Shown piece by piece: positions 6,716-61,100 of a stretch of 64,000 nucleotides of DNA. The position numbers and the translations under genes were made by a program. Origin of the DNA: Octopus vulgaris (lineage: Eukaryota); assembly GCA_951406725.2 (NCBI GenBank), contig OX597824.1, forward strand, positions 9,300,001-9,364,000. The letters run 5' to 3'. The notes under the pieces were generated by a model. The model did no database searches and was not told the DNA's origin. It saw only the letters and a program-made list of their open reading frames with translations. Within the stretch, counting starts at the first letter, position 1. Every line of letters begins with the position of its first letter.

Positions 6716-6935
6716 GAGAGTTTACGGAAAAAAACAAAAGACGAAGGCAGGTGGTGTATAAAACAAAGAGATGTATTAGTATAACGCTCAGGAATATAAA
6801 AAATATTTTACGTTTCGAGCCTACGCTCTTCTACAGAAAGTGACAGAAAAAAACAAGGAGAGTAACAAGGAGAGAAAAAAATGTGTGTAGTGTCTAACGA
6901 TCTATCATGGCGACTGCTAGACAGAAGGATCACAT
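6716..6935 (-). mobile_element. Short TA-associated element P1 with hammerhead-like motif
   Basis: Homologous to 11822-12013 and 60965-61100; 3' end abuts a microsatellite. Confidence 0.7.
6806..6840 (-). ncRNA. Minimal type-I hammerhead-like motif, variant core CUGUAGA
   Basis: Minus strand cttt CTGTAGA A gagc gtag gctc GAAA cg TA aaa: stem I, 4-bp stem II, palindromic stem III acgt, GUA triplet. Confidence 0.55.
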
Positions 6936-8076
6936 ATATATATATATATATATATATATATATATATATATATATATATATATCAATAACATCCTGGTGT
7001 GTCGCTCCTATATGTCTTTTATAATTGTTTCTTCTTCACTCACAAAGCCAGCAATTTTGTGAGAGGGCTAAATCGTTACCACCGACGCCAGGACTTGGTG
7101 GTTAGATACTTTCCCGTCCCAGAAAGAATAAAATTCAAGGGTGAATACAGCAGTATGGGAACTCATAACCTAAAGAGTTGTAAGAAATTCCGTAAGGTTT
7201 GGCCTGAAACTCTAACCACTCTGTCAGTTCACCGAACTGTCTTTCACAATAACATTAAATGCTTAAAATTAGATTACTGGTGTTGTTTAGTCCAACTTAA
7301 CCCTGATTGAGTACATCTGTATTCACCATTTGCCTTCCTAATTTTTCTTGTTTTTTTTTTTGTTTTTTTTTTGTTTTTTTGTTAACGGTTGTATTTGACA
7401 GAGATGTCCATCGAGTTTCCCAGACGATGAAATATAGAAGATTCTCTATTTGATCGCTTCTGGTTAAAACACTTTAGGATTATTTGCAGTTTATTATATA
7501 CACCCTCTCTTAGACACTTACGCACATGTATGTGTGTGTGTGTGTGTGTGTGTGTGTGTGTGTGTATTTGTGTATTTACGAGTTAGATTTCACCAAAGAC
7601 TTTGATATTCAGATTCAGCAATTCTAAATTGTATAATTAGTCATCGAGATTAGTTTATGAATAAAGCGAATTTGACGTAAGGCTTCTTTGAAAATATAGA
7701 GCGATTGCTTTAGTACTATTGAAAGAAACCATGTTTTGTATATTCCATTTCGAAGATTAGTCATTTCTTGAAATTGTATAATTAGTCATCGAGATGGAAG
7801 CTAGTTTCACTTAATGTAATTTTAAGCTTGTCATTATCAGGCTTTCCAAGTTATTATTTAGTGTGTAGTTTTGTAGGGAGGTTGTTGACCGCACAAAAAC
7901 GCTTATTGGGATTAAGTATACCTTATCAAAGGTGTACGTAGGTAGGAGTCTTGCCAACACATATCGCAGTTGAGTGTTTTGTTAGCAAACTGCCAACTCA
8001 GGAAACGAAGCACATATTTGATTGTGTACATACTTACACACTTATACACACAGACACACACACGCATATACATATA

Positions 8077-8900
8077 CAGGGGGCTTCAAACAAATTGATA
8101 TAATTTCAGACGTAAATATCACAGAAACTACATAGCCAAAACAAATGAAACTAAACAGACTTGATTGTCAGCAACATAAGATTTATTCCTGTGAATGTGA
8201 ATGAGAAATTCAAAGGTATGTGAATTCTATGAACGATTTCGCATCACCGGTCACATTTCCCTCAAAGAAAAACGGACCATGAAGATCCTTCTTGGAGATG
8301 GCGCAGAACGCATTCACTTTTGGTGACTTCCTCTCATGCTTAACTGTGGCATGAATATTTTTCTTTACCCCAAATGCGAACATTGGGCTTATTGACTTTG
8401 CCATTCGTATGAAATGTAGCCTCATCATTGAAAACAAGACGTTCCTTGAACTGGGCTTCTTCAAGTTTCTCTTGCATGTCAACACAGAATTCCTTGCGCT
8501 TTCGTTTGTCATCTGCTGTTATGGCCTGGACGAGCTGCAGCTTGTAGGATTTCATTAGTAGGCGTTTCCTGAGGACGCGCCAATCCGTTGTTGGAGCAAT
8601 CTAGGTTTCCAGACTTGTCCTTCTTATCCGATATTAGTGGTCATCCAGATCTTTTTGCCCTGCTAAGACAGCATTCCTCTTTGAATTTTTTTGTGCCATG
8701 TACAAATCCGCATTGCCATTGGTTAATTTTTAGGGAACTCTTTCACAAATGCACGCTGCAAAGTCTTGCTTGACTGTTCAAGCATACTCCAACACCCAAA
8801 ACGTCTTTTCTCTTCCAGTGAATGCCATTTCTATACCTGAAAAAGATAAACATATCAAACATTAAACGTAAACTTTCGACCCGTTTCAACACATGCTGTT
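8077..8900 (-). pseudogene. Decayed Tc1/mariner-superfamily transposon (DD37D/maT-like)
   Basis: YKLQLVQAITADDKRKRKEFC...LVFNDEATFHTNGKVNKPNVRIWG and SPKVNAFCAIS..GPFFFEGNVTG; TA+caggggg TIR-like end at 8075; frameshifted with internal deletion. Confidence 0.85.
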
Positions 8901-9194
8901 AAAATTCGAAGTCATTTCGTTGAAGTAAGCTCTCTTTTAGTACTCTTGTTTTTCGCTCGAACGGACTTTAGTGCGGTTTTTTAACTCCAAAACATCCCTT
9001 CTAGGTACTTAACACTGCACAGCTGCATCCGATATATTGTGAGTCGGGAATCGAACCCTTACCCCATTCTAGCAATGGCACCAACACACAGTAACTCGAA
9101 CAACTACCATTACGGTATCTTACAGGTTCGGTGAGAATTCAAAGCGGAACTAACACACCGTCTCTTACGAACCTCTCAAGGACCCTTACCCTTT

Positions 9195-9500
9195 TCTTTA
9201 TTAGCCACAAGGGTTCAAAATAGAGGGAGACAAACAAGGACAGACAACACAAAACGTGGGGTACATAAAATATATAATGAAAATGTATGTGACAATAAAT
9301 CGAATGAAAAGAAAAGCAATGGCTTACGAGCCTCAACGACCCTTACTGATCTGTCTCAACCAATACGATACTTTTTATAAGAGTTCGCCTAGTCCATCCT
9401 TCCAATCCCAGAGGGGTGTCAATGAGTCTCGCCACAACAATTTGCCAAATATTACAAGTTGTAGGAAACGTATACTCTTAAAGTCGCCCATCACATGACA
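9195..9500 (-). mobile_element. Probable LINE 3' remnant sharing its tail with SINE B
   Basis: Minus-strand tgtctgtccttgtttgtctccctct...cccttgtggctaataagaaaa resembles the SINE B tail, but upstream sequence is unrelated to the SINE body. Confidence 0.5.
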
Positions 9501-58227: not shown

Positions 58228-58765
58228 ATTTATTATCATTATTGTTATTATTAATATTATTATTATTATTATTATTATTATTATTATTATTATTATTATT
58301 ACTATTATTATTATTATTATTATTATTATTATTATTATTGTTGTTATTGTTGTTATTATTTTTATTATTATTATTATTATTGTTATTAGTGTTATTGTTG
58401 TTATTATTATTATCATTATTATTATTACTATTATTATTATTGTTATTATTGCTATTGTTATTTTCATTATTATTATTATTATTATTATTATTAATATTAT
58501 TATTATTATTATTATTATCATTATTATTATTATTATTAATATTAATATTATTATTAATATTAATATTATTATTATTATTATTATTATTAATATTATTATT
58601 ATTATTAATATTATTATTATTATTATCATTAGTGTTATTATTATCATTATTATTATTAATATTATTATTATTATTATTATCATTATTATCATCATTATTA
58701 TTATTATTATTATTATTATTATTATTATTATTATCATTATTATTATTATTATTATTATTATTATT
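58228..58765. repeat. About 530-bp degenerate (ATT)n tract
   Basis: Directly visible; source of the poly-I/poly-L ORFs. Confidence 0.95.
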
Positions 58766-59165
58766 TATAAAGTGGCCTAAGGCATTTGCCTACACACACG
58801 CTGAGATGCTTTCTACGTATTGTATTTCATCCCGGAGGAAAAACATACGTTTTACAAATCGACAAACTAATACAAAATATATTGGGAATTTTATAGAATT
58901 ATATAGAAAATAAAATACGTAATTTGATAAGCTTAATTTCTTATTTGAATACCGTCATATTTTACCGTATATATCCTTTTATTTTAAATATCTGCATATT
59001 TAAAAAGCAACCTCAGATACAACTAACTTAATAGACACGCACACATATACACACATATGCACTGACATCTATACACACAAAGAAACTGACTTAACTACAT
59101 TCATGTACTCACAAAGGAACTAAGAGCCTTAAGCACATAACCGAATTAAAAATTTGCAAAGTATT

Positions 59166-59629
59166 CTTTTCTGCTCCAGGCACAAGGCCCGAAATTTTGG
59201 GGGAGGTGGCCAATCGATTAGATCTCAGTACCCAATTGGTACTCAATTTATCGACCCCGAAAGGATAAAAAGCAAAGTCGACCTCGGCGGAATTTAAACT
59301 CAGAACGTAAAGACAAACGAGATACCTATTTCTATTTCTTTACTACCCACAAGGGGTCGACCTCGGCGGAATTTGAACTCAGAACGCAGTGGCAGACGAA
59401 ATACCTATTTCTTTACTACCCACAAGGGGCTAAACACAGAGGAGACAAACAAGGACAGACAGACGGATTAAGTCGATTATATCGACCTCAGTGCGTAACT
59501 GGTACTTAATTTATCGACCCCGAAAGGATGAAAGGCAAAGTCGACCTCAGCGAAATTTGAACTCAGAACGTAACGCAAACGCTAAGAATTTCGCCCAGCA
59601 TGCTAACGTTTCTGCCAGCTCGCCGCCTT
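59166..59629 (-). mobile_element. SINE family B trimer with deleted middle unit
   Basis: TSD aaaatttgcaaa(g/a)tatt encloses all three units. Confidence 0.88.
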
Positions 59630-60964
59630 AAAATTTGCAAAATATTACAGATTGTACTGGTATGAGACGATCAGTTTAAATTTCTTTTCACTGTCAGACG
59701 TTTTTCAGATTCCCCAGTCTGACGTTGTTTTGCATGATGATAACAGAAATGACATTTTTTGTAGAAATTTAAAATAAAAGAAAGATTCAAGCCTTCAAAT
59801 CAATCACCGGCAAATTGCTGCCTGCTGTTCTTTCTAAATTGCACACCTAAAAAATATTTCACTGAAAATGTTGTATGAGTGCAGCACGCTTATTGATGAC
59901 CTACGTCTCATGCGGTCCACTTCTCAAAGAAGATTTTACCTGCTGTAAGTCTAAATTTAGCCAACCGGAAGCCTCCATTTCCAAGATATGATACAAAAAA
60001 TAACTACTTCTTTTTTTCATACATTTAATTCACCATATTAAACTTATATTTTCCAAAACACGAAGAGAAACATTAAAAAATAACCTAAATCTCAAATGCA
60101 CATAGGGGCGGGAATATACCCACTGAGCCATATACACTCGTACAGACACAAACATAGACACAAACCTACACAAATATATATACATACATATATATATATA
60201 TATATATATATATATATATATATATATATATATATAGGAACTAAAACGCTTCTACAAACATACATAGGTATAAATATAGGCTACACCGAACTGACTACAA
60301 CAACGATTCCCCTCTGCATTCCTGACCTCAGTAAATTCAATAGAGATTAATACCCAAGTGATTCCACTGTTCAGCTGGCCATCTCTGACCTTCTCTCGCC
60401 ATCAATTACCTTACATACTTTCCCTAACGCCATTAACCTTTTAAACTTATTTTCAATGAATTTTACTTAATACTCGCCAAACAATTTTTTTCTGTTTTTT
60501 TTTACATCCCCATAGAATTCTCCACGAAATTATAAATTATCGCTTTAACACACTTGTCTTAAATGAACCTGTCGAAATTGTTCTCTATATAAACATTAAA
60601 TAGAACAGTTTCACTGCTCGTTGAACAGGCTGTTAGGTACATTACGCACGCACAAAGACTGACACACAAAGGCAAAGACACACACACACACACACATAAT
60701 CGAGAGGGAGAGATTCAGCCAGCAATTAATCTTATACATATATACATACACACACACAAACACACATGTATATATATATATATATATATATATATATATA
60801 TATATATATATATATATGCACAGAAACATATACACACTTGCGTATAATTTATCTAGTTTCAAACGTTACCTTTCTTATAAGTGTGTGTGTGCGTGCGTAC
60901 ACACAACATCACTCACTCACACACACACACACACACACACGCATATATGTATATGTGTAAATAT

Positions 60965-61100
60965 GTTTCTCTCCTTTTTTCTCTCCTTTTTTCTCTCCGT
61001 TTTATTCTCTCCTTGTTTGTTTTTGTATCCCTTCCTGTAGAAGAGCGTAGGCTCGAAACGTAAAAGACTCTTTCTATTCCTGAGCGTTATACTAATACAT
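60965..61100 (+). mobile_element. Element P1 with hammerhead-like motif (61031-61066)
   Basis: cttc CTGTAGA A gagc gtag gctc GAAA cg TA aaag, then ttcctgagcgttatactaatac. Confidence 0.7.

Follow-up and report, generated by a model that had tools for sequence, protein, structure and literature searches.

Short repeats in the Octopus vulgaris genome carry a minimal type-I hammerhead fold in which position 6 of the CUGANGA core is occupied by U (U6). Three copies lie in the window considered here, namely the 64,000 nucleotides of contig OX597824.1 (assembly GCA_951406725.2) from position 9,300,001 to 9,364,000 of the forward strand, an AT-rich region crowded with microsatellites and with repeats resembling short interspersed nuclear elements (SINE-like repeats). 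All coordinates given below are those of the window. In family sequences assembled from public runs, U6 is a trait of the family and not the product of decay, a point on which we are highly confident. The repeats are likely the 3' ends of an abundant octopod family belonging to the Penelope-like elements (PLEs), that is, pieces of the pseudo-long terminal repeat (pLTR) type or solo pLTRs. The fuller reading, in which a U6-fixed minimal hammerhead on such ends would cleave weakly and yet be maintained by selection, is one that we hold with even confidence. The three copies and their parts are as follows.

6716..6934, minus strand: copy 1, 219 nt, with the longest 5' extent, between (TA)n tracts
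6805..6840, minus strand: minimal type-I hammerhead of copy 1
6836 (C3), 6833 (U6), 6832 (N7) and 6829 (extra A), minus strand: core positions of copy 1
6828-6825/6820-6817, minus strand: stem II of copy 1, with G12 at 6816, ACGU at 6813-6810 and H17 at 6809
between 6809 and 6808, minus strand: predicted cut of copy 1
6935..6984, no strand given: (TA)n tract, 5' junction of copy 1
11825..12011, plus strand: copy 2, 187 nt, ending 3' where copy 1 does and shorter by 30 nt at the 5' end; flanked on either side by (TA)n, and immediately following a truncated SINE-like repeat
11887..11922, plus strand: decayed hammerhead of copy 2, with G5A at 11893, U6 at 11894 and a stem II mismatch at 11907
12014..12044, no strand given: (TA)n tract, 3' junction of copy 2
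60987..61100, plus strand: copy 3, 114 nt (approximate span), both ends shortened, preceded by extra pyrimidine-rich units
61031..61066, plus strand: copy 3 hammerhead, its core matching that of copy 1 and its stem I mismatched at the first pair (61034)

A 28-nt core was matched at 6809-6836 (minus strand), 11891-11918 (plus strand) and 61035-61062 (plus strand), with no match in 100 shuffles, and pairwise identity among the three copies came to 87-90% over 112-189 nt. Each is a single copy lying outside any tandem array (3/3), the copies being found on both strands at distances of 5 kb and 49 kb. The 3' ends of copies 1 and 2 coincide, abutting (TA)n, while that of copy 3 comes 55 nt earlier and the 5' ends all differ. 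As such, the copies display a fixed 3' end, 5' truncation and a microsatellite target, with the (TA)n tracts at 6935..6984 and 12014..12044 likely being that insertion target. Apart from this, the predicted cut is followed, some 15-20 nt downstream, by an 11-nt block (6788-6798, minus strand, in copy 1) that is identical in the three copies and in the sister element described below; a protein may bind there, or the block may take part in a tertiary contact.

Numbered as a hammerhead, copy 1 has the sequence C3 U4 G5 U6 A7 G8 A9 and then an extra A, followed by a 4-bp stem II opened by G-C, by G12 A13 A14, by A15.1 C G U16.1 and by A17. The sequence-only reading had given the three copies as sharing one string. 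The copies are real and position 6 is U in all three, with the other core bases matching CUGANGA in copies 1 and 3; the string itself is inexact. Specifically, the core of copy 2 reads CUAUAGA and the loop-closing pair of its stem II is a C.A mismatch, the first pair of stem I in copy 3 is C.A (its fourth pair, C-G, is intact), and stem I is of 3 bp in copies 1 and 2. With the exception of the core, in which U stands at position 6, several features of a minimal hammerhead were present, namely, a stem I between 3 and 5 bp long (the sister element and the family majority both having 4 bp), GAAA, the A15.1-U16.1 pair, an NUH cleavage site, an extra base between positions 9 and 10.1, G10.1-C11.1, and a palindromic 15.2-16.2 pair without a loop III (C-G in 4/4 natural copies). 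The 5' flank of the motif is U-rich, as in the minimal hammerheads of PLEs. Cervera and De la Pena give four unasked-for traits of these hammerheads (PMC4209133). Three of the four could be checked here, i.e., the extra base, G10.1-C11.1 and the palindrome, and all three were found; the fourth is that families are rich in compensatory changes (PMC4209133).

A minimal-hammerhead descriptor allowing one core mismatch was run along both strands (128 kb), where it matched only copy 1 and the sister element (at 31223, minus strand), as compared to 0.02 matches per shuffled window (100 shuffles) and 0/3000 element shuffles. These values, together with the extra base, G10.1-C11.1 and the palindrome, bear out the earlier assignment of a hammerhead fold with kinship to the minimal hammerheads of PLEs. 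No canonical minimal hammerhead occurs in the window. In agreement with the suggestion that standard motif searches would miss the motif, local Rfam scans of copy 1 and of the sister element yielded no hammerhead match, nor did one appear among the 150 of 335 whole-window Rfam matches listed. The matches listed comprised only miRNA matches, which were microsatellite-driven and below threshold. Energy minimisation recovered stem II in copies 1 and 3 and in the sister element; beyond stem II, nothing informative came from folding monomers, dimers or whole elements, the last being no more stable than their shuffles (z 0.0 to +1.5). In addition, a register in which U is inserted ahead of an intact A6 was considered and rejected, as the A in question is the variable N7.

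A divergent sister element, known from a single copy, lies between the first two copies and the third.

31096..31292, minus strand: sister element, 197 nt, between (TA)n tracts (nhmmer E 2e-5)
31193..31227, minus strand: hammerhead of the sister element, core CCGACGA, with A6 kept and C at position 4 (C4)

The sister element shares with the family both the hammerhead and the 11-nt block downstream. Its stem II is that of the family with a 3-nt loop, its H17 is U, and its fourth stem I pair is G-C, the reverse of the C-G pair of the family. Because the register is kept with a changed loop, with A6 and with a reversed pair, the sister element supports homology to a real hammerhead, and its sequence suggests that A6 may be the ancestral state. 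That the hammerhead likeness is a chance feature of an ordinary SINE-like repeat is very improbable. Such an origin would be consistent with the lack of an Rfam hammerhead match, with elements no stabler than shuffles, and with the availability of only four natural copies, on the alignment of which no covariation was counted; the rarity of descriptor matches in shuffled sequence, the sister element and the placement of the variable sites at N7 and H17, as described next, all argue against it. We consider it almost certain that the motif is homologous to the hammerhead.

Variation across the family was addressed in public sequence data. Of 24 public runs under five species labels, four (X1, X2, X9 and X22) were aligned to copy 1, with contigs being placed at 80% likeness and differences being counted from 4%; 18117, 14467, 3264 and 3533 records were placed in the four runs, respectively. 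X22, possibly an RNA run, served as a source of family contigs only and not as evidence of expression. The variant counts rest on the 40 of 46 rows listed, and since subfamilies are non-independent, statistics on variation call for caution. According to the listed rows and the per-run tallies, no letter other than U reached 4% at position 6 in X2, X9 or X22. The sequence-only reading had held U6 to be a family trait rather than decay and had named a genomic consensus restoring CUGAUGA as an outcome that would speak against its interpretation. The family trait is upheld, and no consensus of the form CUGANGA appeared in the family contigs. The core proposed in that reading, CUGUAGA, is correct as to U6 and is better written CUGUNGA, given that position 7 is A, C or G, with U also occurring. 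Here, G accounts for 9-32% and C for 12-17%, with U being seen in loose ends and minor shares amounting to 9-32% overall. The variability of position 7 fixes the register.

Position H17 is likewise variable, being A or U (U at 14-56% of depth, giving GUU beside GUA), with no G17 among the rows listed. Indeed, N7 and H17, both free positions in the hammerhead, are the only ones to vary among the 14 junction positions (2/14; chance 0.011-0.033). In the listed rows, 0/11 core places vary, as compared to 26/149 places outside (p 0.13); when stem II and inner stem I are added to the core, the values are 0/25 and 26/149 (Fisher p 0.012). In X9, which bears another species label, the majority differs from that of X1 and X2 at nine places, of which only H17 falls inside the hammerhead, and U6 persists. 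The fourth pair of stem I is restored in the family majority (73-90%). Changes at 15.2 and at 16.2 occur in similar proportions (2.5-10.5%); the two positions form a CpG, and the pattern is compatible both with compensation to a U-A pair and with decay of the CpG. Pair counting on the four-row alignment, which misplaces the loop of the sister element, revealed no covariation.

In 4/4 runs, the hammerhead coincides with the peak of depth, with bins 1.5-2.2x deeper than any bin outside, and contigs often retain the hammerhead while their flanks diverge. Depth steps by 1.06-1.86-fold at the point where copy 3 ends 55 nt early. Summed depth does not equal copy number, and the crude bounds that it gives for X1 and X2 (~4,000-170,000) hold as an order of magnitude only. 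It was also observed that at 6840 in X2 and X9, the U6 hammerhead is joined to a different upstream flank in many contigs; in X9, the 223 loose ends at this point (median 129 nt) point to further subfamilies.

The assignment of the repeats to the 3' ends of PLEs, which we consider highly probable, is based on a 3' end that is fixed and a 5' end that is not, on flanking (TA)n, on a size like that of pLTRs and on the minimal hammerhead. The Hydra and Naiad clades include octopus PLE families that are recorded as inserting into (TA)n (PMC8557442), pLTRs of 193-218 bp are on record (PMC3846280), and recently active Penelope families (31 families) are reported in Octopus vulgaris. Upstream of ~6920, depth falls to 0.3-2.4% of the peak, and in 3/4 runs a shared non-repeat upstream continuation was seen, in short loose ends only. 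Such rare continuation is expected if few copies extend into a longer parent. The sequence-only reading had proposed a non-autonomous ribozyme-bearing retroelement. In that case, the repeats would constitute an independent element of ~190 nt, whether SINE-like or a dispersed retrozyme, with a borrowed PLE terminus and its own transcription, and might cycle through a small circular RNA. The steep drop in depth upstream of ~6910, by which most copies are short, would suit such an element, as would two single contigs in X2 that join the 3' end to the 5' start, head to tail, and offer a weak hint of partial tandems; animal retrozymes, moreover, have been proposed to be pLTR-derived (10.64898/2026.07.22.740005). 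By contrast, the window copies are dispersed singles rather than tandem arrays, their 5' ends differ, a shared upstream continuation exists, and both X2 joints lie at the element ends and not at the predicted cut site. Furthermore, the hammerhead is minimal, whereas retrozymes carry the canonical loop-contact type (PMC7229834), and no canonical type-I hammerhead with loop-loop contact was found in the copies. We accordingly regard a non-autonomous element as improbable, with truncated PLE 3' ends fitting the non-tandem copies at least as well.

If the repeats are PLE ends, then a full-length or tandem master copy would be transcribed, and a protein combining reverse transcriptase (RT) and GIY-YIG domains would nick (TA)n DNA, with reverse transcription starting at a fixed point close to the RNA's 3' end. 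Such target-primed insertion would mostly stop after 110-220 nt, leaving dispersed non-coding copies that later decay, as those of the window are doing. On master transcripts, two hammerheads would pair via the palindromic ACGU to form stem III, probably with help from the protein of the element, and the dimer would cleave slowly after GUA or GUU, U6 being expected to spoil the CUGA turn. Self-cleavage by the U6 hammerhead is predicted to be weak. Natural A6C cores are slow, at <0.1 per minute (PMC3088659), with A6C attaining near 0.3 per minute in 1 mM Mn2+ (PMC7151607). PLE hammerheads are slow in general (PMC4209133), and one was reported to require the protein of its element to cleave (PMC11167929). 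A weak, still-selected ribozyme is favored because variation among U6-bearing sequences follows catalytic rules. Biologically useful cleavage is, on present analysis, at best as probable as not.

Several points weigh against this account. As regards the parent element, the 144 filtered reading frames examined with Pfam in the window yielded neither an RT nor a GIY-YIG fragment, such that the terminus was not seen attached to an RT plus GIY-YIG frame there; protein searches, being empty or spurious, provided no link between the repeats and a PLE protein, and the published PLE consensus sequences of the octopus Hydra and Naiad families, as far as given in the supplement text of PMC8557442, did not contain the motifs of the family. 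As regards U6, among the six rows outside the 40 listed, three in X1 could by their type concern position 6, and one C>T (X1, X2), one G>T (X1) and one T>G (X9) came without a place. As regards selection on the hammerhead, no changes within the family could be phased as compensatory, invariance is equally seen in the last 31 nt at the 3' end, such that conservation is not unique to the hammerhead, and depth depends on how typical copy 1 is of the family. As regards catalysis, an intact hammerhead is present in 0/3 window copies, and energy minimisation did not recover the hammerhead dimer. In a full mutational scan of a hammerhead, moreover, every single or double change made to the CUGA turn, apart from the C3-G8 swap, gave low activity (PMC9901934), and for an Anolis PLE in vitro, insertion was unimpaired in hammerhead mutants and RNA ends at the cut site were not observed (PMC11167929).

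These last points bear on a rival that retains the PLE-end origin and holds the U6 hammerhead to be catalytically dead. According to this rival, cleavage is dispensable, the change spread from a successful master copy, and the remainder of the motif either serves the RT protein as a signal for binding or folding, and was retained for that, or has had little time to change. We consider this possible though the less probable outcome. CUGA-turn mutants are low in activity and show no rescue (PMC9901934), PLE insertion in vitro is independent of cleavage (PMC11167929), Naiad PLEs proliferate without canonical hammerheads, and the sister element also departs from CUGA through its C4, as if the turn had been released in the lineage. 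Yet variation at N7 and H17 that avoids G17 and the other core bases is what catalytic constraint would leave, and not the mere keeping of stems; likewise, U6 is retained in X9 despite nine majority differences, H17 being the only one of them within the hammerhead. For these reasons, the weak, still-selected ribozyme is preferred over a dead fold.

When known systems are considered, the closest are the minimal hammerheads of metazoan PLEs (PMC4209133), which share with the family a short loopless stem I, an extra base after A9, G10.1-C11.1, GAAA, a two-base palindrome without loop III, an NUH site, a U-rich 5' flank and dispersed single copies; the stem II of the Acropora digitifera Neptune motif is near-identical to that of the family (PMC4209133). 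They differ in position 6, with A6 appearing in all 56 representatives of the 2014 alignment, a count biased by the fixed-core descriptor used, and in all 34 rows of the 2021 table (PMC8557442), also found with a fixed core. They likewise belong to PLEs, whereas the family here is not linked to a PLE reading frame. Hydra-1_Obim and Naiad_Obim/Ovul/Omin (Craig et al. 2021, PMC8557442) come from the same host group and insert into (TA)n, and Hydra families have their hammerhead near the 3' end, as here. In the hammerhead of Hydra-1_Obim, however, the core is canonical, stem II is long and stem III is of 4 bp. Judged by its sequence, the family described here is other than Hydra-1_Obim and the Naiad families.

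Departures from the core consensus have been described in nature, namely A6C of phage Bcep176, U4C of a viroid and U3-A8 (PMC3088659, PMC7151607). The Bcep176 variant resembles the family in having a pyrimidine at position 6 of an otherwise complete core, with A6C activity that is low, measurable and favored by Mn2+, and the viroid U4C corresponds to C4 of the sister element. A6C is, however, a single phage sequence in a full-size ribozyme, whereas U6 is fixed in a high-copy animal repeat of the dimer type. The non-LTR retrozymes (PMC7229834, 10.64898/2026.07.22.740005) are, like the repeats here, short, non-coding, equipped with a type-I hammerhead and likely moved by PLE proteins. They differ in their tandem repeats, canonical hammerheads and circular RNAs, as opposed to dispersed singles with a minimal motif. 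Finally, PAc, a Poseidon PLE of Anolis (PMC11167929), offers a model for AT-rich targeting, a fixed internal RT start, an optional tail and a protein-assisted hammerhead. PAc nonetheless has a canonical core, and its reading frame begins within the hammerhead, whereas the copies here lack an ATG after the motif.

Literature searches, with the listed papers judged by title and first lines, found no natural U6 core and no report of this octopus family, although an earlier mention is possible, for example in the survey by Lunse et al.; the accessible portions of PMC11014351, PMC6962438, PMC8967140 and PMC2837043 hold nothing on the family. PLE hammerheads, the dimer model and the core variants U3-A8, U4C and A6C are already known, such that family-wide U6 appears to be what is new here. 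It bears on whether a PLE can spread without cleavage by its hammerhead, cleavage having been dispensable in the one reconstituted system (PMC11167929), as the multiplication and diversification of a family despite a change at a core base held to be invariant amounts to a natural experiment. Should the U6 core cut, then the hammerhead consensus and search descriptors would be too narrow; should it not, then PLE hammerheads would be retained for something other than cleavage. We consider it unlikely that a hammerhead lacking A6 cleaves usefully, rescued by the protein of the element or by Mn2+, and is fixed in thousands of octopus copies. Were this so, then the family, together with its C4 sister element, would represent a PLE lineage that had rebuilt its uridine turn, and also a class of hammerheads that escapes all CUGA-based searches and may extend to some PLE clades now called ribozyme-less.

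Searches with the motif beyond the octopus returned no matches in metagenome contigs or in viral contigs by pattern scan. Three pattern matches in GTDB were dropped as chance, being inside bacterial reading frames and having neither the stems nor the flanks. A 41-residue frame over the 5' part of the element gave either no match or three tandem-repeat proteins judged to be spurious.

Other repeats and frames in the window were also noted. A very abundant SINE-like family is represented, for example, at 41058-41473, 50281-50696, 24932-25198, 46787-47020, 2187-2420 and 11612-11817, with some copies lying in head-to-tail partial tandems; when this commonest repeat was translated, three protein matches of 62-80% identity were obtained, two being Octopus bimaculoides predictions. 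A second abundant dispersed family, of ~430 nt and with an internal microsatellite, is found at positions such as 44829-45274, 47231-47673, 43342-43758, 21463-21910 and 3709-4078. Pfam, applied to the 144 frames, gave one weak match to a DDE transposase and two spurious ones. The open frames at 49237-49557 (minus strand, 107 residues) and 45555-46061 (minus strand, 169 residues) are of ordinary composition with no Pfam match, and a protein search with the former returned no longer homologue. The weak DDE match (DDE_3) marks a broken Tc1/mariner-like transposase fragment at 15793-16337 (minus strand), and 12486-12791 and 8213-8518 (both minus strand) are, from motifs judged by eye, what we take to be further broken Tc1/mariner-like transposase fragments.

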